Program-made: the position numbers and the translations under genes
Shown: in pieces, positions 5,024 to 24,513 of the stretch
How positions within the stretch are numbered: the first letter of the stretch is position 1
How the letters are laid out: each line of letters opens with the position of its first letter
Origin: Deltaproteobacteria bacterium
GTDB lineage: Bacteria; Desulfobacterota; Desulfobacteria; Desulfobacterales; ETH-SRB1
DNA length: 42,691 nucleotides
Direction of reading: 5' to 3'
NCBI GenBank assembly: GCA_030262775.1
Contig: JAJSZP010000003.1
Span: 1-42,691 of the forward strand
The notes under the pieces: model-generated
What the model was told of the DNA's origin: nothing
Databases searched by the model: none
What the model saw: only the letters and a program-made list of their open reading frames with translations

Positions 5024-5347
5024 TTGTTTTTAGATAATGCCACATATTGCAAGGATAGAATTGTTTCTCAAAGGCTGAAAAATCATCCAAAACTTCAAAT
5101 CGAATTTTTACCGCCTTATGCCCCGAATCTAAACATGATTGAGCGTTTCTGGCGTTTTGTTAAAAATAATCTTGTGAAAAACACATACTATAAAAAATAC
5201 AAAACCTTTCGCGCAAAAATCTTTCAGCTTTTGAACCATGTGGAACAACATCTTGATGAATTTAAAATAGTAATGGTTAAAAAATTTCAAATCATGAAAA
5301 ACAGCCGCATCAACTATGTCAAGAAAAACCCACCCGAAGGGTGCTAA
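5024..5347 (+). mobile_element. IS630-family transposase C-terminal remnant
   Basis: LDNA.Y and LPPYAPNLNMIERFWRFVK motifs (second D and E of DDE). The N-terminus is missing. Confidence 0.85.
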
Positions 5348-5467: not shown

Positions 5468-6520
5468 TTATAGATTATTCAAAAGATACTTAGAGATCAC
5501 CTGATGGCCGAACTCAGAGAAGTGAGTTGAATCATTGTATAAAAACAATTTGTTTGCTTCTATTTTATTATCTCTTATATGGTTAAGCAAATAATCATAT
5601 AAATCTATGTATTCAATATGATATTGAGAAAAAAAGTTTTTTAAATTCTCTTGAGGAGTTAAGTGATCATTTGTTCTTAGTTGATATTCATAGGGAAAAA
5701 GTATGACTTTAAATTTTATGCGATTTTCAGAAAGAATTTCTGAAATATATCGTAATATCTCAAGGCCTTCTTGATAGTTTTTTTTATCAGGGTTATGCAA
5801 TCTTGCATCAGTTATAAAATATCTTGCTGATGTGTCTTCAAAAAGGCTTTTTAAGAATAAGTAGAGTCTTGAGGTTCGCCTAAGGAAATTATTTAATGCA
5901 AAAAAAATATGAATGGATTTCAATTTGTTAATTAAAAAAACGTCTTTCGTAGTATATTGAGATTGGTGCCTTAAGATATCGCTTTTAGGCAGTAAATCTA
6001 AATTGAAATCATTCAGACAGAGGCTCATAACGACGTAGCTTGAATTTTCCACAGCTTTGTTTTTTATGATATAATAATCAATGAAATTTCTATAATCATG
6101 CAAATTGTATCCAAGAACCGCTGCATTCACAATTTTATAATCGGGAGAATTTCTGTTGATAAATTCTACAAATGTTTTTTCAGCCGATACGCCGTATCCG
6201 AAAGTCATAGAATCACCGACGAAAAAGAGACTTCTCTTATCCTTCTTGTAGCCATAATCAGTATGAGGATCAATCCTGAAACCATTATTATCTGTATATA
6301 TTTTTTTACCTACAGCAATCGCTTCTGTTGATTTACTATTCGCAAAAGTATCTCCATAAACATTGTACCTGAATAAATTTTTGCTAACTCCTATAGGAAT
6401 AATTTCAGGAACAAATATGCGTACCAATATCTCCGAAAATAATATTAATACTGTCAACCCTAAAATATTCGAAATCAAAAGCGTTTTTTTCGGATTTTTA
6501 TTAAACCATTTCTGTTTCAT
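5468..6520 (-). CDS. Membrane-anchored SGNH/GDSL hydrolase-family protein
   Basis: N-terminal TM helix, GFR, VGDSMTFGYG, NAAVLGY, LND and DSTH..GH blocks. Confidence 0.85.
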   Translation of the reverse strand: MKQKWFNKNPKKTLLISNILGLTVLILFSEILVRIFVPEIIPIGVSKNLFRYNVYGDTFANSKSTEAIAVGKKIYTDNNGFRIDPHTDYGYKKDKRSLFFVGDSMTFGYGVSAEKTFVEFINRNSPDYKIVNAAVLGYNLHDYRNFIDYYIIKNKAVENSSYVVMSLCLNDFNLDLLPKSDILRHQSQYTTKDVFLINKLKSIHIFFALNNFLRRTSRLYLFLKSLFEDTSARYFITDARLHNPDKKNYQEGLEILRYISEILSENRIKFKVILFPYEYQLRTNDHLTPQENLKNFFSQYHIEYIDLYDYLLNHIRDNKIEANKLFLYNDSTHFSEFGHQVISKYLLNNL

Positions 6521-6738: not shown

Positions 6739-8601
6739 TTAATCCATTGTAAACTCATTTTTCCAGTTTCTCGTTTCTCCCCATTCCTTCTGCTGTTTTT
6801 TTGAAAAAATACAATTTCCCATAACTAGAAAATCCATTTCAGTCCTCATGAAACAGATGTAAGCATCCTCGGGAGTGCACACAATGGGTTCACCCCTTAC
6901 ATTAAAACTTGTATTCACAATCAGCCCGTAACCGGTTTTTTTCTTAAAGGCTTTTATCAGTTTCCAGTATTTATAATTTGTATCTTTATTGACACTCTGA
7001 ATTCTCGCAGAATAGTCAACATGGGTTATTGCCGAAATATCGGTGCGAAGATGGTAAAGTCTTTCATACATCTCCATCTGCGAATAATTATCAGGCAGGG
7101 GATTTCGCCTTTCTTCAATCACAGGGGCCACAATAAGCATATATGGAGACGGGATATCAAGACCAAAATATTCTCCGATATTCTCTTCAAGGACCGAAGG
7201 GGCAAAGGGGCGAAAACCCTCCCGATACTTAATCTTCAGATTGAGTTTTTTCTGCATCTCCGGATACCGCGGATCTCCAAGAATGCTGCGGTTTCCCAGC
7301 GCCCTTGGTCCGTATTCCATTCTCCCCTGAAACCACCCGATCGCGTTTCCATCGGCAAGGAGTCCTGCGACATCATTACAGAGAAGATAGAAATCCGAAT
7401 ATTCCTTGAAAGGAGCATCAAACTTGCGAACAGAACGTGCAATCTCAGCAGAAGAATATTCGGGGCCAAGGTAGGCCCCCTTCATCAAATCTTTACCGTT
7501 CCCGGCAGGTCTTTCCTTCTTCAGCCATATGTGCCATGCAGCATATGCAGCGCCAACAGCACCTCCGGCATCACCCGCTGCGGGCTGAATCCAGATATTC
7601 CTGAATATTTTTTTTCTTAAAAGTTTGCCGTTTGCCACACAGTTCAGGGCAACCCCACCAGCCATCACAAGATTATCAGCCCTGGTAAGTTTTTTTGCCG
7701 TATCCGCAAGACGAAAAATGATCTCTTCGGTTACCTGCTGAATCGCGAGTGCAAGATCCATATACGGCTGGTCGAGTTCACTTTCAGGCTTTCTTTTCGG
7801 AATACCAAAAAGTTTTTCCCATTTTCTGTCATGACACATGGATAAGCCAGTAGCAAAATTGTAATAATCCATGTTCAGAAGAAACGAACCGTCTTCACGG
7901 ATGTCAACAAGCTCTGCAATTATTTTCTGCCGGTAGTGCTTCACGCGGTTTCCATCAGGATTTCCATAAGGAGCCAGTCCCATCAGCTTATACTCGCCGC
8001 TGTTAACCTTAAAACCGCAAAAATATGTGAAAGCTGAATATAATAGCCCCAATGAATGGGGAAAGTTGAGCTGATTAAGGATTTTTATCCTGTTCCCGTT
8101 ACCATGCCCGATTGTTGTTGTCGCCCATTCACCGACGCCATCCACAGTAATAATAGCTGCATCCTGAAAAGGAGATGGATAAAAAGCGCTAGAAGCATGG
8201 GAAAGATGGTGTTCCGGAAAAAGAAGCTTTCCTGGTTTTCCAAGATCAAGATCCTTCAGCTCATCCATGAGCTGCTTTCTCATGAAAAGCTTTTCCTTTA
8301 TCCACACGGGCATTGCAGATAAAAAACTAACAAGCCCTCTGGGGGCAAATGCATGATAGGTTTCAAGCAGCCTTTCAAACGTGATGTATGGTTTGTCGTA
8401 GAATGAAACAGCCGTGATATCTTCCAGGCCTAGGCCTGCTTCGCCAAGAACATATTTTACAGCGTGCGAAGGAAATGACGAATCATGCTTGACCCGTGTA
8501 AATCTTTCTTCATGAGCAGCAGCGATAATCTCGCCTTCAATAATTACAGCCGCAGCACTGTCATGGTAATATGCGGATAGTCCTAGTATTGCTTCCGGCA
8601 T
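6739..8601 (-). CDS. Carbamoyltransferase (NodU/CmcH/SxtI family)
   Basis: YYHDSAAA, EERFTR, EHHLSHA, DGVGE, GEYKLMGLAPYG, GGVALNCVANG, GPRALGNRS, FRPFAP and NTSFNVRGEP. Confidence 0.96.
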   Translation of the reverse strand: MPEAILGLSAYYHDSAAAVIIEGEIIAAAHEERFTRVKHDSSFPSHAVKYVLGEAGLGLEDITAVSFYDKPYITFERLLETYHAFAPRGLVSFLSAMPVWIKEKLFMRKQLMDELKDLDLGKPGKLLFPEHHLSHASSAFYPSPFQDAAIITVDGVGEWATTTIGHGNGNRIKILNQLNFPHSLGLLYSAFTYFCGFKVNSGEYKLMGLAPYGNPDGNRVKHYRQKIIAELVDIREDGSFLLNMDYYNFATGLSMCHDRKWEKLFGIPKRKPESELDQPYMDLALAIQQVTEEIIFRLADTAKKLTRADNLVMAGGVALNCVANGKLLRKKIFRNIWIQPAAGDAGGAVGAAYAAWHIWLKKERPAGNGKDLMKGAYLGPEYSSAEIARSVRKFDAPFKEYSDFYLLCNDVAGLLADGNAIGWFQGRMEYGPRALGNRSILGDPRYPEMQKKLNLKIKYREGFRPFAPSVLEENIGEYFGLDIPSPYMLIVAPVIEERRNPLPDNYSQMEMYERLYHLRTDISAITHVDYSARIQSVNKDTNYKYWKLIKAFKKKTGYGLIVNTSFNVRGEPIVCTPEDAYICFMRTEMDFLVMGNCIFSKKQQKEWGETRNWKNEFTMD

Positions 8602-15905: not shown

Positions 15906-17336
15906 TTATTTTTTTGTTTTTTGAAATGATACAAAACCGGTTTTCTGATCATAGGCTGATTTTTTGCCCTTTATCCTTGCAAGGGTTCGAAAAACGAATA
16001 CAGCAGTCGGTTTCAAGACCCGTTCAAACATTCCGAGAAAACCATCTGCCAGCATATTCAAATATCGTTGAGAATATGGTCTGTAAAACATTCTTGCCAG
16101 GTCATTCTCATCTTTGGGAAACAGATCATCATCTTTTGAAATTAACCCCTCCTTCACCGCTATATCCCGAATATGTGTATCAGGTTCAATTTTGATATAA
16201 CTGATTCCACCGCCTCCTCTGCCAGGCAATGAAAGTTGAATTTTAAAAGGTAAAATTAATGTTTTTATTGTATCTGTTAAATTATAACCCGGCAACGATG
16301 TAAAAAGGCCAAAGCCTATACCAATGCCTTTTATTTTACGTGCCATGTTGATGGTATTTTTAATATCCTGCTCGGTCAATCCTTTTTTCAGGGCAGAAAG
16401 TCCTTTATTAGTGGCAGCATCAGGGGAGAAATCAATCTGAACAGCGCCAGCTTTTTTTAACAACTCCAAAAATTCTTCGGTTATTCCTTTCATATGGCAC
16501 CATACACCAAACTGAACATCAAGATTTCTCCTGATCATTTCCTCAAGAATTTTTCTTGCATGACCCTCCGGTACATTAAATACACTATCCACAAAAACAA
16601 ATCGCTCCATCCCGAACTGGTTGATAAAATATTCAATCTGATCAACAATGTCTTTTGTGTCACGGAGCCTGACTTGCCGGCCATTTAAATTAGGATAGGA
16701 ACAGTATGCACAATTAAGTAAGCATCCTCGCTTTGTCTGGATACCGATAATATTGTATGACGGACCCAGATAATTTTTCATGTCAATTACTTCCGTGGCT
16801 GTTTCAGGCATGGGAATTTCAGAAAATTCAGGCAATGGTCTGTCTCCAGTGTAAATAACCTGATTATTTTTCCGCATGAATATCCCTTTTACATTTTCTG
16901 GATTATTCAGGTTTGCAAGTAATTCTGGTGTGGATTTTTCACCCTCAAGGAAAATTCCGAAGTCAAATTCCGGAATTTTTTTCATGATAATTTCAGCAAA
17001 CATTGAAAACCCAGAGCCGCCTGCCAAAATTTTTATTTCCGGATTAATTTCTTTAATCGCCAGGACCATTGGCTTCACTGTATTAAAGTATACATGTTTA
17101 TTCCTGAAATTTGTTGTATCAATATTTCGAATTGAGATTCCGATTATATCAGGCTTGAATTTTTGCATTTCATTTTTCAGCTCATCCATAGCACTTGATA
17201 AAGGATACAGGTTAGGGTCGAATATTTTTACCTGATGATTTTTCAGGGCAGAAGCTATGTAGGTAAGGCCGATTGGCAAATTTGGGACTTGTGCTTCTCT
17301 TGTTCCCATATCCTGCTGAATGAGTAATACTTTCAT
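15906..17336 (-). CDS. Cobalamin-binding (class B) radical SAM protein
   Basis: PIGL.YIAS, PDIIGISIRNID, GGSGFS, GEKS, QTKRGCLLNCAYC and FVDSVFN. Confidence 0.92.
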   Translation of the reverse strand: MKVLLIQQDMGTREAQVPNLPIGLTYIASALKNHQVKIFDPNLYPLSSAMDELKNEMQKFKPDIIGISIRNIDTTNFRNKHVYFNTVKPMVLAIKEINPEIKILAGGSGFSMFAEIIMKKIPEFDFGIFLEGEKSTPELLANLNNPENVKGIFMRKNNQVIYTGDRPLPEFSEIPMPETATEVIDMKNYLGPSYNIIGIQTKRGCLLNCAYCSYPNLNGRQVRLRDTKDIVDQIEYFINQFGMERFVFVDSVFNVPEGHARKILEEMIRRNLDVQFGVWCHMKGITEEFLELLKKAGAVQIDFSPDAATNKGLSALKKGLTEQDIKNTINMARKIKGIGIGFGLFTSLPGYNLTDTIKTLILPFKIQLSLPGRGGGGISYIKIEPDTHIRDIAVKEGLISKDDDLFPKDENDLARMFYRPYSQRYLNMLADGFLGMFERVLKPTAVFVFRTLARIKGKKSAYDQKTGFVSFQKTKK

Positions 17337-17343
17337 AATTATC

Positions 17344-18854
17344 CTAATCTCTACTTTTAAAAAAATGAAAAACTTTTTTAAAGGTCATGACTATTCCTGG
17401 AAACAAACTTGAAATGAATATATTTTTTTCAAAAACAATAATGAACGGCTTTAACGCAAAAAACCTGATCAAAGTTTTAGATATTCTTAATCGTAAAAGA
17501 ACAAATAACAATGTAGTATAATGAATTGTTTTTTGCCTGTGCCAGACCCAGGTTTTTAAGAAGTGTTGTGGCTCCAGCAGATTATCCTGTTTTGCTTTTT
17601 CATAGAGTTTTGTCCCGCGATAAAAAACCAGGGAGTTAACTCCTATCAGAGATTGAGAAGGGGCGTGGCTTAACAGGTAGTTAAGAGTATATAGTGTATC
17701 GTCAGTTGTTTCCCAGGGATTATTTACCAGAACATCTATTAAAAGTGGAAAACCAGGATAATTATTTTTAAAAAATTTAAATATTTTATCACAATTTTTA
17801 TTAACCTTTATGCGATTATACATAGCTTCTATCCGAGGAGCCTTACTCTGCAACCCAATGTGGCATAATAATAATCCATTTTTAATAAGGTGATTCATTT
17901 TTTTTTCAGAAAATTTTTGTGGAGAGATCAGGCAGCGGAAAGGAAACCCTGATTTTTTAAAAATTTGCGCAACTTCAATAACGTCATTTCGATAAATAAA
18001 GCAGTCATCTTCAATACTGATAATTCTAACAAAAGGAATTTTTTTTTAACCCAGTTTAATTCATCTTCAATTTGATCTAATGACTTCCAGCGTACTTTAG
18101 GCGTTATGATTTTTTTTAAAATATTATTTGCACAATAAGTGCAATTATGCGGGCAACCCCTGGTGGTTTCTATGTGATAGACAGTTTGCATTTCACCAGG
18201 TACACCAGGTAGCTCATGTTTTTCAAATAAATAGTCCTGGTATTTATCTTCATCACAGGTTTCAAGCGAAAGGATTATCTGTTCTTTTTCGGAGTAAATG
18301 AAATGCCCCTCAGGTCCATAGTCAGGCAGAGGAAGAGAAGAAACATCTGAGATGTATTTTTTTTCTGGGCGAGATTTGCCTTTGAACCAAATGTTAGGTA
18401 TGGAGTTAATGTCCTGAGAGTTATTCATCTTCCGAACCAGTTCCAACATGGCATCTTCCCCCTCACCTATGCATACAGCATCAGCATATTGAAGAGCTTC
18501 TTCAGGATTTAAAGAAGGCAGTACTCCTCCCCATATAACGAGATTTGATTTGTTTTTTAAGGCCTGTGTCAGTTTTATTCCGACCTGCATATAGTTATCC
18601 ATTAAACTTATACCAATTATCGAAGAGTCTCTCGTTATATTAACAACTTGTTGAATTATCGTTTCTGGGTAATCAATGTTGGAGAAAGGAGAGATGTTTA
18701 ATGCGGAATCTGAAGAGTGTGAAGGTAAAAAAATCATTTGAGTTTTATAACCAGAATTGCGTAATATTGCGGATATTATCCTTAAACCAAGATTTAATGT
18801 ATTACTGTATGGCGAAATAAGACTCACCTGAATATTACTATCATTCAAAATCAT
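17344..18854 (-). pseudogene. Cobalamin-binding radical SAM, frameshifted at a poly-A tract
   Basis: WGG..P, IGEGE and TTRGCPHNCTYC. Adding one A at 18039-18047 gives ...KKKIPFVRIISIEDDCF..., in frame with ORF 17344..17898. Confidence 0.82.
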
Positions 18855-18890
18855 CCCCCCTCAATTTGTTCGGATTTTTTAGTTACCTAT

Positions 18891-19006
18891 TTAAGGCGGG
18901 GCACTTTTAGTACGCTGAACAGAGGTTTTTAGTAAATAATCAAGCATAATTAAAGCGTTAGCAAGCTTTTGCCAACTGCTTGAATTTACAGACTGTCCCG
19001 CCTTAA
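18891..19006. mobile_element. MITE-like element (116 bp)
   Basis: TTAAGGCGGGGCA / TGTCCCGCCTTAA inverted ends (12/13 match). Confidence 0.6.
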
Positions 19007-19079
19007 GTGTGTAGCCTATTGCAATTTGACAATTAGCTGGCCATTTTAGCCTCATGCAAATTTTGGAATTCCAATACTA

Positions 19080-20198
19080 TCAAATATCAGTGTGTTTTGT
19101 GTAAGAATAAGACATAAATTCATCAATCAAATGATCTGGTATTTCTAATTCATCCCTCAAAATAGATATTATCTCAGGCCTGCTATCTTGTTTCTCTTCC
19201 AACTCCATCTGTTTTAATGCCGTTTCTCTTGACATGTATCCCAGCCTAACCATGTTTGCATATCCATCCACATTATGGTTAAACCCCATCATAGCTTTAA
19301 AACAATGGTTTACTAAAGTATGATGTAAACGACAATCAAATCTCCAACTCGAAGTCTTCTCCTCAGGCTTTTTCCAATCCAACTCTTCCATCAATGTTTT
19401 CTTTATCTTTCTTCGATCCCATTCAATGTAATCATAGAGAAAAAATTCTTTAATATTTTTATTTTTATTAAGGGGATATACATGGCCTTTTATGTCTAAC
19501 AGGTTGTTCATTATGCTGGTTTTAGGGGTCCAATACTCTGTTCTTAAACGCAAAACATAATATAGAAATTTTATAACAGCCGGTTTGTTGATGGAAAATA
19601 AATGTTTCCGAATACCTTCGCGACCAAAAAACTCATTAGAAAACAGTTTATCCTCGAATGAGAATTCTTCTGCTTTGGAATGACCCCACAGGATTACAGG
19701 AATATTATTCTCTATGGCTGTTTTATGTAAAAGCCATTTTCCCCCGGTCATACAGGCGTAGCACATCCTCTGTTTCGCAAAAGTAGGCCCAAAGGGAATT
19801 GAAGCCTTTAGATGGTTTGATAGCAATTGTATGTCTACTTTGCTTCCGGCAGAGATATAATCAACATTTAAAATCTCGCAAGCCCTTTTTAAGTTAGCTA
19901 ATCCCTGGGGATGTCGAAATCCATTATCATAGTTTAGTGCTAATACATTAAGTTTAAATATCTTTTTAGCTGCATACAGGACAAACGTACTATCGCGTCC
20001 TCCACCTGTCCCCACAAGGCAATCGTATTTTCCACCCTTACTTTTATAGGCTGAAAGTATCTTTCTTAATTCGTCCTCACCTAAGGGCTGTTTTTTCTTG
20101 TAGTTTAAGCAGACATTACACACCCCATTTTCATCAAATGTTATATTTGGATAATTTTCAGGCAATACACACTTACTACATCTTTTTACGCCTATCAT
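19080..20198 (-). CDS. N-acetyl sugar amidotransferase-like PP-loop protein (WbpG/PseA-like)
   Basis: CSKCVLP...FDENGVCNVC, YDCLVGTGGGRDST, DNGF, C.AC, DC and a VR.G.MSR..AL tail. Confidence 0.8.
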   Translation of the reverse strand: MIGVKRCSKCVLPENYPNITFDENGVCNVCLNYKKKQPLGEDELRKILSAYKSKGGKYDCLVGTGGGRDSTFVLYAAKKIFKLNVLALNYDNGFRHPQGLANLKRACEILNVDYISAGSKVDIQLLSNHLKASIPFGPTFAKQRMCYACMTGGKWLLHKTAIENNIPVILWGHSKAEEFSFEDKLFSNEFFGREGIRKHLFSINKPAVIKFLYYVLRLRTEYWTPKTSIMNNLLDIKGHVYPLNKNKNIKEFFLYDYIEWDRRKIKKTLMEELDWKKPEEKTSSWRFDCRLHHTLVNHCFKAMMGFNHNVDGYANMVRLGYMSRETALKQMELEEKQDSRPEIISILRDELEIPDHLIDEFMSYSYTKHTDI

Positions 20199-20355
20199 AG
20201 TCTCATATCCTCACTCCTGATTACATATAACCGGGATCCAAGTTTTTTCTATCTGTTTATTATTATTTAAACCTTCTCAACACACACCGATTTAATTCCC
20301 TGTGTGTGCACATGGTTCCAGTTCATACCGAGGTTATTTAATTCATAATATTTGA

Positions 20356-20945
20356 TTATAAACTTACCAATTGTTCGGATTTTTCTCTGCCGATGATTTT
20401 CTCAGCAGCATCTATTCCTTTGATTAATGGGTAAGTACCACTCAGGCTTCCTGCATTTAGCTGAGTCAATGCGCCTTTTTGTATCAGCCCATTGATCTTA
20501 TTCGGCATCTGCTGTATTTCCAGATTTCTTTCAGAGTGAGCAATTATGGGTACTAGTCTGTTTATGAGTAATTTGAAGATTACTTCTTCGGCATATAATG
20601 GAATTTGGTATGCAGGTAATTCCAGTAAGATATATTTTTTTTATACTGGATTATCAGTTTGTTATGCCTTTCAATATATTCCGGAAGGTCATGAGAAATG
20701 AAAAATTCGGCCCCGACAATTATTTTTATATTAATTTTTCTGGAAATAATTTCTTTTTCCAGTTCACTGGCAACCTTGCAAATCCTATTGCATAAATCGC
20801 TGGATGGGATTTCAAGAATATGGGGTGTGGCAACTATTACCTTTATGCCTGCACCGGCAGCTTTTTCCACTATTTTTATGGATTCATCAATAGCCCATGG
20901 ACCGTCATCAATACCGGGAAGAATATCTGTATGGATATCAATCAA
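20356..20945 (-). pseudogene. CpsB/CapC-family PHP tyrosine phosphatase, degenerate
   Basis: IDIHTDILPGIDDG, ATPH and GAE. Frameshift at the T8 tract 20635-20642, then YILLELP, IIAHSERN, QLNAGSL. The xSDAH segment is missing. Confidence 0.85.
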
Positions 20946-20988
20946 TGTTTTTTTCTTCCGAATAGCCTGTTTTATAATAATATTGATA

Positions 20989-23019
20989 CTATCCGTCTGT
21001 TCCTAATTTGAACTTATTTAAAATCATCCCAATAAGATAAACATTTGCCTGGATCAAAAAATCTTTTAACTGGTAAAAAGCCTTGAGCGTTAATTTCTCA
21101 CTTTCTAATATCCCTATAGAGCCATCCACATATCCTGCCAATATTATGGCATCATTGGCCACAAGAACAGGTGGTGAATCAATTATAACCATGTCGTACT
21201 GTTCAGTGAGCTCTCCTATTAAATGTTTCATCTTATTAGATTCTATCAAACGTCCAGGATCGTGCGGAATGGGACCGCTGGTGAGCAAACTTAGACCTTT
21301 AATATCGGTTTTTATTATACTCTCTTTAAGGCCTGTCTCCTCCGCCAGGATGTTGGCAACGCCACGTAAGTTCGATACACCAAAAAATTGGTGAATAGCG
21401 GGTTTTCGAAGATCTGCATCTAAAACAACTACCCTCTTCCCTTCATGAGCAAATGAGATCGCCAAATTAATTGCAGTGGTGCTTTTACCCTCTTTTTCAA
21501 GTGCGCTGGTAACTATTAGGCTGGTTACCGGTTTATCCAGCGTAGCAAATTTAATACTATTCCGAATAGTTCGGTAAGATTCCGGTAACGGATTTTTAGG
21601 GTCCATTTCAGAAATTAATTTAGGTTGTCCCCTTCTGAACTTAGGAATCGTTCCTAATAAGGTAATCCCAAGATTCTTTACTTCATCAGACGTTTTTATG
21701 GTATCATCCAGGTAATCCACCATGAAGCCAAGACCCAACCCGAACATTAACCCCAAAAAAATACCCACGATACTGTTTAAGATAATGCTGGGACTCTCAG
21801 GATCGTCGATATCCGGCACTGTTGCTGCTTCTACCAACCTAATCTCAGAAATAGCCATAGCTTCCGCTATTCCGACTTGATAAAGACTTTCAAGGAGCGA
21901 GCTATAATGCTCTTGACTGACATTGTATTTTAATTCAAGTTGAGATTCTCTGAATACTTTATGAGGCATGACGCGTAATAACGATATATGACTTTTGATA
22001 TTTGTGTCGATGTTTTTACGTTGGGCTTTCAGCGCAGCAAGTTCTCTTTCAAAATCCTGCAAGCTTGTTGAGGTCTCCTGGAATACACTGATTTCAGTTT
22101 TCAATTCATCTCTGATTCTTGCTATCTTTTCGTTAATGGCTGCCACATCCGGATGAGCCGGCCTCTTTTCCATCAACATCCCTGCTAATTCCAACTCAAG
22201 ATCGGTTAAGGTTGTTTTGAGGTTTTTAATCTGGGGATTTTCAGTAATAGCGGAACTTGAGACCTTAGCGTCATTCTCTCTATCAAGTTGGCCTTTTAGT
22301 GTTTCTATTTCTGCCCTAACCCTGGAAATATTAAGAATATTATCCTCTTTCCCCTTTATCAAGTCCACCATTGTTTCTATAGCCACCCTGGTTTCTGTTT
22401 CCAAATCAACAGTGTCTTCCGCTATCATAAATTGTTTTATCTCATTCAAAAGATTGAAATAATCAGCCCTGGTCAATTTGATCTGATTTTCAATAAATCC
22501 TTTGGCGTTTCTGTATTCTTCCTTCATTTGACTGAGGTTATGTTCAATATATACCTCTGCCAAGCTGTTAGCAATTATCGCTGCCTCTTCCGCATCAGGT
22601 GACTGTGCCTTGATTTCAATTAAATCCGCATCCTCAATCTGTTCTAACTCTACATAGGCTTGCGGAAATATAGATGATACTATGAACTTTGATTTTTTCA
22701 ACTCACTGGGCTTCAACAAAGATCCATCTCTGGCCCTTAATTGTAATTTTGATATAACCTCTTCCAGAATTGGACCTACGATGGCCAGCTCCAAGCGCGT
22801 TTCAGTTTCCACTTCCTGCTGGTCGACACCTTGCAAACCAATAGTTGCCAAAAGAGATGATGCGGTATTTGAAGTTTTAGCGTATACTTTTGCAGACGTT
22901 TCGTACACAGAGGGGAGCAAGAAACTGCCTATTATAGCTGTAAGCGAAATAATTAAAAATGCCTGGATAATAATCCACTTTCTGCGACAGATGATTTCCC
23001 AAATTATTTTAAGTTCCAT
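20989..23019 (-). CDS. wzc: Wzc-type polysaccharide co-polymerase/BY-kinase, tyrosine cluster cut off by TAG
   Basis: Two TM segments flanking a coiled-coil periplasmic domain, ESYRTIR, Walker A EGKST, DADLRKP and IIDSPP. Confidence 0.93.
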   Translation of the reverse strand: MELKIIWEIICRRKWIIIQAFLIISLTAIIGSFLLPSVYETSAKVYAKTSNTASSLLATIGLQGVDQQEVETETRLELAIVGPILEEVISKLQLRARDGSLLKPSELKKSKFIVSSIFPQAYVELEQIEDADLIEIKAQSPDAEEAAIIANSLAEVYIEHNLSQMKEEYRNAKGFIENQIKLTRADYFNLLNEIKQFMIAEDTVDLETETRVAIETMVDLIKGKEDNILNISRVRAEIETLKGQLDRENDAKVSSSAITENPQIKNLKTTLTDLELELAGMLMEKRPAHPDVAAINEKIARIRDELKTEISVFQETSTSLQDFERELAALKAQRKNIDTNIKSHISLLRVMPHKVFRESQLELKYNVSQEHYSSLLESLYQVGIAEAMAISEIRLVEAATVPDIDDPESPSIILNSIVGIFLGLMFGLGLGFMVDYLDDTIKTSDEVKNLGITLLGTIPKFRRGQPKLISEMDPKNPLPESYRTIRNSIKFATLDKPVTSLIVTSALEKEGKSTTAINLAISFAHEGKRVVVLDADLRKPAIHQFFGVSNLRGVANILAEETGLKESIIKTDIKGLSLLTSGPIPHDPGRLIESNKMKHLIGELTEQYDMVIIDSPPVLVANDAIILAGYVDGSIGILESEKLTLKAFYQLKDFLIQANVYLIGMILNKFKLGTDG

Positions 23020-23112
23020 ATTTTAAATTTTACTTTCACCGTTTTACTTTCACTGATGAGAAGAGAAATGATTTTATTGCCAATCAGTCACTCAATACTA
23101 CTCAACTAATAT

Positions 23113-23652
23113 TCAATAACTTACAGAGCCTATTTTTTTCAAGGCGTTAGCCGCATTGGAACTGACATATTTATCCTTATCGTCCAACAGTGTTGTTAAT
23201 GCCGGAACAGCGCTTTTATCCTCAATATTTCCTAATGCCCAGATGGCGGTAAGCCGGACATCCTTATCTTGTAGAATTCTGATCAAATGCCTTACTGCTT
23301 TTGCGTTCTTTATCATTCCCAGCGCATCACATGACGCCGTTTTTATCTCTTTATCCTCTTCATTCAAGAGAGCAACTAATGCCTCAACAGAACTATCTTC
23401 TTCTATTTTACCTAAAGCCTCTATGGCATTTAGCCTGGTCTCTTTGAGCTGATCATTGTTTAAAAGTTCGATCAACATGGGAACAGCTCGTTTTTCTTCC
23501 TCTTCTCCAAGATAATATATGGCATTATTTATTACCATAGCATTTTCACTCTTCAAATCCTGTAGATATTTTTCGGTGTCGTTTAGACTACAGCCATAAT
23601 TAAGAAATAAAATTAAAGCTAATAAGCCACCCAAAATCTTTTTTTTAGACAT
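23113..23652 (-). CDS. HEAT-repeat lipoprotein
   Basis: Signal peptide with lipobox-like NYGC and repeated A..ALG.I....AV..L...L.D units. Confidence 0.85.
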   Translation of the reverse strand: MSKKKILGGLLALILFLNYGCSLNDTEKYLQDLKSENAMVINNAIYYLGEEEEKRAVPMLIELLNNDQLKETRLNAIEALGKIEEDSSVEALVALLNEEDKEIKTASCDALGMIKNAKAVRHLIRILQDKDVRLTAIWALGNIEDKSAVPALTTLLDDKDKYVSSNAANALKKIGSVSY

Positions 23653-23745
23653 TTTACCCTCAGAATCCTAAATTTTCTCCCATTTGTTAACAAAAAGCGC
23701 AAGTATAATAATCAGACTATTCTATAGTTTGTTAATTCCTCAATT

Positions 23746-24513
23746 TCATGGCGAAATAACAATATCCTTCTCATCTTCTTTTCCACGCAAAACATCTTCC
23801 ACTTCCGGCGCCATAATGATTCCTCTTTCCAGGCTTATAAAAGGAGTAATAATATTATTAAATCGCTGCATGAATCTTTCTAAATTAGCTATGAAGCTGG
23901 GAGGCACATAGATAATGTCACCGCTTCTTAAATGAATATCCTGATATATCTTCCCTGTCCTGAGCATATCATGGATATTTAAAGCAGCAACTCTGGCTGC
24001 ACCCTTTTCATTTCTTACCAGAAGGACCCCCTTTTCGTTGGCATCAGCAGTAAACCCTCCTGCCTGGGATATAGCTTCCCATGCCAACATCTTTTGATCC
24101 AGGATAAAAGTCCCTGGAGATTCAACCTCGCCGAGAATGTGGATCTTCCGGCTTTTTAAACTGGAAACGTTAATATCCACCTGCGGATCAATAAGGTATT
24201 TTGATAGCCCCGAAGCTATTTTTTCCCTTAATTGGGAAACGGTTAAACCTGATGCCTCAACTTTGCCCGCCAATGGAACGTAGATGTTTCCGGATGGGTC
24301 TATCTGAACTGTTCTTTTCAGATCCTCATGCCTCCAGACATTGATGGCAATCTCGTCGCCTGAGCCCAGGATAAACGAAGATGTGGGGAAGGCTGACTTT
24401 TTTTTGTCAATGATTCCCTTTTCCGTACCGCCTTCCTTGACTATTTTGTGGCCGGAACAGGCCATTGCTAACAACAGCAGCAATGGCCATATTATTTTGC
24501 AGCACTTTATCAT
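23746..24513 (-). CDS. wza: Polysaccharide export outer-membrane lipoprotein (OPX)
   Basis: Lipobox AMAC, LGSGDEI.I.VW, DPSGNIYVPLAG, SLBB motif GEVESPG, AGG and GDIIYVP. Confidence 0.92.
   Translation of the reverse strand: MIKCCKIIWPLLLLLAMACSGHKIVKEGGTEKGIIDKKKSAFPTSSFILGSGDEIAINVWRHEDLKRTVQIDPSGNIYVPLAGKVEASGLTVSQLREKIASGLSKYLIDPQVDINVSSLKSRKIHILGEVESPGTFILDQKMLAWEAISQAGGFTADANEKGVLLVRNEKGAARVAALNIHDMLRTGKIYQDIHLRSGDIIYVPPSFIANLERFMQRFNNIITPFISLERGIIMAPEVEDVLRGKEDEKDIVISP

Follow-up and report, generated by a model that had tools for sequence, protein, structure and literature searches.

What ends the kinase gene wzc directly in front of its tyrosine cluster in contig JAJSZP010000003.1 of a Deltaproteobacteria bacterium (assembly GCA_030262775.1): a nonsense mutation, a codon that is read through, or an error of the assembly? 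The analysed stretch, referred to as the window, is this whole contig of 42,691 bases, and it belongs to a genome bin of 2.57 Mb in 251 contigs. The gene encodes Wzc, a polysaccharide co-polymerase (PCP) joined to a tyrosine kinase of the bacterial type (BY-kinase), and is followed by what is left of a phosphatase gene of the CpsB/PHP type. With a probability of roughly 0.7 we consider the in-frame TAG of wzc a genuine and probably recent nonsense mutation that is part of the loss of the phosphorylation cycle at this locus. The features concerned are the following:

20989 to 23019, minus strand: wzc, PCP-2a polysaccharide co-polymerase fused to a BY-kinase, 676 amino acids as ended by the TAG.
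20989 to 20991, minus strand: in-frame TAG standing where the C-terminal tyrosine cluster has its first tyrosine, placed by translation and by the alignment column.
20938 to 20988, minus strand: cut-off tyrosine-cluster tail of 16 codons with five tyrosines, together with the ancestral TGA at 20938-20940, placed by alignment with the cluster of the homologues.

Translation of the minus strand between 20938 and 23019 yielded a Wzc of 676 amino acids whose C-terminus reads KLGTDG and is followed by the TAG (20991 to 20989). Behind it the same frame continues for 16 codons, YQYYYKTGYSEEKNID, up to a TGA (20940 to 20938). The next open reading frame (ORF) starts with the TTG at 20945, and the TGA of the wzc frame is located inside the eight-base overlap of stop and start. 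The first-pass annotation of the window had described the same arrangement, a kinase ending in KLGTDG-TAG with a frame running on to a TGA that overlaps the start of the phosphatase, and it had correctly placed the TAG one base away from a tyrosine codon (TAT or TAC). The body of the protein carries the Pfam domains Wzz (residues 2-67) and GNVR (residues 360-432), both above their cut-offs, and is matched by the P-loop domains AAA_31, ParA and CbiA. We aligned the window Wzc with 20 homologues of 690 to 764 amino acids (alignment A2, 21 rows) and found the Walker A, A' and B residues E510, G511, K512, D534, D536 and D614 among the invariant columns. The NCBIfam model TIGR01007 (polysaccharide biosynthesis tyrosine autokinase) was matched with 167.7 bits (cut-off 108), but only over positions 1-192 of its 204: the translated Wzc has no C-terminal tyrosine cluster, which is found solely behind the TAG.

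An open frame behind a stop codon is common in this genome. Among its long ORFs, 32 to 42% (varying with the stop codon) have at least 16 open codons behind the stop, and the openness alone therefore carries no meaning, whereas the content of the frame does. In alignment A2 the residues behind the TAG align with the tyrosine cluster of the homologues, 18 of which have such a cluster at the C-terminus followed by residues rich in Lys and Arg. The column of the TAG itself holds a tyrosine in 15 of the 20 homologues, a serine in one and a gap in four, which agrees with the earlier statement that the TAG takes away the tyrosine cluster. We extended the count to 110 related loci in which the alignment of the kinase runs as far as the C-terminus. 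At least three tyrosines are present in the tail in 103 of these, three loci (L063, L068, L077) naturally end without a tyrosine tail, and in none of the 110 is a stop followed by a tyrosine-rich frame. Furthermore, in 14 of 25 close loci the TGA of wzc overlaps the start codon, GTG or ATG, of a gene beginning with M-I-D-I-H, as it overlaps the phosphatase start in the window; several of these loci are near-duplicates, so that the 14 represent 11 distinct sequences. Since the tail aligns with the tyrosine cluster and the overlap of TGA and phosphatase is common to the close loci, the ancestral wzc ended at 20938-20940. As judged from the alignment, the TAG is the first tyrosine codon of the cluster changed by one base.

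The closest database homologues (P0002 to P0024) are 53 to 63% identical to the window Wzc over the kinase domain. Orthologous loci in sediment genomes and metagenomes of the Desulfobacteraceae type (e.g. L028, L031, L033, L035, L107, L109, L121) encode Wzc proteins with 50 to 62% identity; they share the tyrosine-cluster tail and the overlap between the wzc stop and the phosphatase start, and they show a tyrosine at the position of the TAG. A search of 12 genomes of the same genus returned only Wzc-like matches of at most 36% identity and no orthologous allele. Likewise, a query of 57 amino acids in which the TAG was read as tyrosine found no near-identical short fragments from other samples. 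The nearest relative at the DNA level (L032, 73% protein identity) ends at residue 584. Two homologues, P0013 and P0025, end just before the tyrosine cluster, at what may be either the end of a contig or a stop codon.

The first-pass annotation had treated the gene adjoining wzc as a plain phosphatase gene. We newly recognised it as a pseudogene, which by comparison with its orthologues is broken at least four times:

20583 to 20945, minus strand: 5' piece of the CpsB/PHP tyrosine phosphatase pseudogene, starting with the TTG at 20945; the piece 20580-20945 matches positions 1-105 of the 234 of Pfam PF19567.
20356 to 20640, minus strand: 3' piece of the pseudogene in a different frame, matching positions 103-171 of the 234 of PF19567.
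20635 to 20642, minus strand: run of eight A (A8) at the break of the phosphatase frame, the two pieces abutting at columns 101-104 of alignment A3.

Alignment A3 comprises the window copy and nine orthologues, and a column was regarded as conserved when at least eight of the nine agree. One extra A in the A8 run would lead to an orthologue-like continuation of the phosphatase. The codon at 20925-20927 encodes Asp instead of His7, the second histidine of the N-terminal H-x-H, which is present in all nine orthologues; the window copy thus reads H-T-D. In the motif A-H-P-E-R the proline is replaced by serine. A deletion of 32 columns (A3 columns 175-206, junction near 20433/20434) has removed the S-D-x-H, and the C-terminus is also short. 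The residues of H-x-H and S-D-x-H in CpsB/PHP phosphatases are metal ligands. Positions 172-234 of PF19567 are largely absent, no single ORF spans the whole profile, and of the 63 conserved columns 43 are retained, 10 deleted and 10 substituted. This remnant is the sole match to PF19567 in the genome. Two domains of the low-molecular-weight protein tyrosine phosphatase (LMW-PTP) type are encoded elsewhere, one as a stand-alone protein of 160 amino acids (contig C133) and one fused to an FMN-reductase (C21).

Among the close loci the orthologous phosphatase is an open frame of 243 to 267 amino acids in 10 of the 11 distinct cases. The remaining locus, L052, contains a stub of 60 amino acids (about 6088-6270, downstream of the wzc stop) that looks degraded and has H-T-R for H-x-H, yet the tyrosine cluster of its Wzc is full. 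Loss of the phosphatase therefore need not bring loss of the tail.

A frame that stays open and tyrosine-rich up to the ancestral stop would also be expected if the TAG were read through in a programmed way, whether through pyrrolysine, through a suppressor tRNA or owing to a leaky context, to give a full-length and phosphorylatable Wzc. Recoding as such is present in the genome, which has two tRNA genes for selenocysteine (tRNA-Sec) and a formate-dehydrogenase-like gene split at a probable selenocysteine codon. We searched the genome for the machinery of amber decoding; the bin is 92% complete with 3.6% contamination, which limits all of the following negative results, and a small pyl cluster could sit in the missing part. 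The best matches to the profiles of PylS (21.2 bits, cut-off 178), PylD (25 bits, cut-off 150) and PylB (61.4 bits, cut-off 348) were all below the cut-offs, with Methanosarcina acetivorans as a control above the cut-off for all three. ARAGORN found 49 tRNAs and one transfer-messenger RNA in the whole genome, none of the tRNAs with a CUA anticodon, and no tRNA gene in the window. Release factor 1 (RF1, prfA) is intact (530 bits, cut-off 423). TAG is a common stop codon that closes 307 of 1409 long ORFs, and the frames behind it are ordinary: from one stop to the following one in frame, the median is 9 codons for TAG, 9 for TAA and 10 for TGA. A search of positions 17000-24000 against Rfam with E values up to 0.1 matched no family, and a stop at the position of the TAG does not recur in the related loci.

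Compared with known recoding by pyrrolysine (pylTSBCD), the window is alike in its in-frame TAG with an open and meaningful frame behind. It is unlike in that its genome has neither pyl matches nor a tRNA(CUA) and does have RF1, and in that relatives do not conserve the TAG; in addition, the TAG replaces a tyrosine in a low-complexity tail and not the catalytic residue of a methyltransferase. Furthermore, the phosphatase that a phosphorylatable tail needs is dead, and there is thus no obvious use for such a tail. We regard readthrough as very improbable. The first-pass annotation had left two options, a nonsense mutation or amber readthrough; the former fits the tyrosine column and the broken phosphatase, while the latter found no support when the pyl genes and a suppressor tRNA were looked for. 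Here, a TAG in frame and followed by meaningful codons is no evidence of pyrrolysine, and the key clue was the state of the neighbouring gene.

With a nonsense mutation, a single-base change from TAT or TAC to TAG would have occurred at the first tyrosine of the Wzc cluster, and RF1 would read the codon as a stop. The product would be a Wzc of 676 amino acids in which the co-polymerase and the P-loop kinase body are intact and the substrate of autophosphorylation is gone. The phosphatase would have been inactivated earlier by several independent lesions, and the TAG in wzc would be a later step in the loss of the switch. As the phosphatase carries many lesions and wzc a single one, the phosphatase very likely died first. 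Because Wzc ends before the cluster it would not be phosphorylatable there, and with the phosphatase gone too the cycle would be lost at this locus. As a type of event this is ordinary, namely gene decay in an accessory locus of a well-known family.

For the E. coli model two sources (PMC8285477, PMC9245664) describe the unphosphorylated Wzc as an octamer in which each tyrosine tail lies in the active site of the neighbour; multiple phosphorylation takes the ring apart and the phosphatase resets it. In the capsule system of E. coli K30, according to PMC8285477, the tail has to be autophosphorylated and also dephosphorylated by the phosphatase for capsule to be made, and a Wzc with all tail tyrosines replaced gives no capsule. 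By analogy with K30, the nonsense mutation may have led to the loss or a strong change of the high-molecular-weight polymer of this locus.

The same model allows the truncation to be seen as adaptive or compensatory. Without its phosphatase Wzc would be trapped in a highly phosphorylated, disassembled state; an amber codon at the first tyrosine, selected after the phosphatase had been lost, would lock Wzc unphosphorylated in the ring, and removal of the cluster would let the locus export polymer without a phospho-cycle. The many lesions of the phosphatase against the one in wzc suggest the order that this scenario needs, the remainder of the locus is intact, as is the body of Wzc, three of the 110 related loci do without a tyrosine tail naturally, and the octamer reported for E. 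coli is formed by the unphosphorylated protein (PMC8285477 and PMC9245664). However, the K30 Wzc with its tail tyrosines replaced makes no capsule (PMC8285477), and the proposed order of events is read from lesion counts only. Moreover, the stand-alone LMW-PTP on contig C133 could replace the PHP enzyme, so that no trap would need to be escaped. We consider an adaptive truncation unlikely.

Several observations weigh against a genuine nonsense mutation within a decaying switch. The body of Wzc shows no decay: of the 184 columns with a conservation of at least 90% among the 20 homologues it matches 173, a fraction of 0.94 compared with a leave-one-out range of 0.76 to 0.98 for the homologues themselves, and the tail of 16 codons is still open. 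With the body undamaged and the tail open, the truncation, if it is real at all, should be recent, polymorphic or tolerated. An intact appearance is also shared by most of the other genes at this locus, a misfit with wholesale decay. We compared the site of the TAG with Logan contigs, where X1 and X2 are two runs of one sample that hold half of the sampled words. The site is bridged by X1 record 6 and X2 record 14 over 305 letters; these contigs, both from the one sample, differ from the window at six places (about 98% alike), and the base call at 20989 is presumptive. Over each of two poly-A runs, the A8 run of the phosphatase and a run of nine A (A9) in a radical SAM gene described below, contigs of relatives that are 96-98% alike hold exactly one letter more than the window (the A8 run is spanned by X6 record 28, the A9 run by X1 record 1 and by X2 record 10). 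This hints at frameshifts that are specific to this strain or to this assembly. In addition, the housekeeping-type gene cobD is split at a run of nine T (T9), so that some homopolymer calls in the assembly may be wrong.

These points lead to the question of whether the TAG is an artefact of the assembly or consensus, or a minority allele. In that case the wzc of the organism would read tyrosine, and the TAG would stem from a base-call error or from a mixture of strains in the bin. The bin is fragmented (251 contigs) and contaminated to 3.6%, and it contains two tRNA-Sec genes (contigs C132 and C189) as well as duplicates of tRNA-Arg(ACG), tRNA-Pro(CGG) and tRNA-Gln(CTG); the duplicate tRNAs hint at strain mixture or contamination. 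In runs X1 and X2, pieces identical to this stretch occur together with relatives of it that are 96-98% alike. The split cobD and the undamaged tail behind the TAG also fit an artefact. On the other hand, a substitution is not a typical assembly error, and the consensus depth is about 10. Of the long homopolymer runs in the genome, 735 of 1151 lie inside long open frames. In a control of 80 kb from two other contigs none of the 74 ORFs is split by a frameshift; the one split found there is at a stop, probably the selenocysteine codon, of the formate-dehydrogenase-like gene mentioned above (L167:3928-8037, minus strand). Outside the window we noted 22 junction-like runs, of which 21 were tested (C173 was left out), and a gene is split at just one of them, the T9 run of cobD on contig C95. 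The assembly is thus not generally error-ridden. Furthermore, the 32-column deletion and the substitutions at conserved residues of the phosphatase are not producible by base-call error. Even with single calls in error, the switch has therefore really decayed, and a broken switch makes sense biologically. An artefact or minority allele at the TAG appears decidedly unlikely.

Two split genes came up in this part of the analysis. The cobD/cbiB gene of cobalamin biosynthesis (C95:6465-7422) consists of two overlapping frames at the T9 run 6958-6966, which match positions 3-157 and 154-282 of the 282 of the Pfam profile; either the frameshift is real or the assembly has miscalled the homopolymer. 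The screen of junction-like runs was not exhaustive, as it missed a split gene in the window itself. This gene, encoding a B12-binding radical SAM protein (17344-18854, minus strand), is split into ORFs of 308 and 184 amino acids at the A9 run 18039-18047, and one extra A in this run would join the frames. An intact paralogue of 476 amino acids adjoins it (15906-17336).

Upstream of wzc and at some distance from it we mapped further features of the polysaccharide locus:

23113 to 23652, minus strand: gene for a HEAT-repeat protein directly upstream of wzc, with matches to Pfam HEAT_2 and HEAT_PBS.
23746 to 24513, minus strand: gene for a Wza-like outer-membrane polysaccharide export protein, which looks intact, with matches to Pfam Poly_export and SLBB.
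5024 to 5347, plus strand: remnant of a DDE_3 (IS630-like) transposase in the polysaccharide locus, matching positions 83-145 of the 146 of the profile.

The Wza-like protein scores 120.6 bits with NCBIfam TIGR03027, which is under the cut-off of 180. In P0078, L042, L044 and L045 the kinase itself carries HEAT repeats at its C-terminus, where they replace the tyrosine tail or follow it. The G+C content of the region is 34-38% compared with 39.8% for the genome, and the locus appears to be a strain-specific, probably acquired polysaccharide island. A second BY-kinase locus, with a tyrosine-rich tail, is located on contig C134. Apart from the genes, an intergenic spacer of the window (about 18950-19025, core 18969-19016) contains a short dispersed repeat, about 50-70 bases in length. 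We found 15 further copies of it on 13 other contigs, the copies being 80-89% alike, and no match in Rfam. In four sediment runs the summed contig depth in the position bin of this repeat is 243-1202, as against about 5-30 in its vicinity, and loose ends are numerous to either side.

Two known types of system can be set beside the locus. With Wzc/Wzb of E. coli (K30 capsule, colanic acid) it shares the Wzz-like periplasmic and transmembrane part, GNVR, the P-loop kinase including its Walker motifs A, A' and B, and the linkage of a phosphatase gene to the kinase gene; the homologues of the window Wzc are also alike in their C-terminal tyrosine cluster. It differs in that the tyrosine cluster of the window is cut off by the TAG, and in that its linked phosphatase belongs to the PHP (CpsB) type, is not an LMW-PTP, and is a pseudogene. 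The window Wzc reaches only 146 bits with the E. coli equivalog models (cut-off 1068). With the CpsB-CpsC-CpsD modules of Streptococcus and Staphylococcus (CapC-CapA-CapB) it shares the adjacent genes for kinase and phosphatase, and the phosphatase remnant matches Pfam CpsB_CapC; its match to NCBIfam Cps4B is weak (48 bits, cut-off 400). Unlike in these modules, kinase and membrane partner form one fused protein of 676 amino acids, as in Gram-negative systems, and the phosphatase is frameshifted and without the metal-ligand histidine and the S-D-x-H.

Tyrosine codons TAT and TAC are one change away from TAA and TAG, and clusters of tyrosines are therefore intrinsically prone to nonsense mutation. 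Truncations such as the one in the window should thus recur and be silently missed by annotation. If Wzc were locked in its ring, this polysaccharide locus would be running with no phospho-cycle, although the E. coli model regards such a cycle as obligatory. Provided that the TAG is real, the locus has a natural Wzc without phospho-acceptor tail beside a dead phosphatase. It would then show a BY-kinase switch dismantled in the wild, and would bear on whether the cycle of kinase and phosphatase is obligatory outside E. coli.

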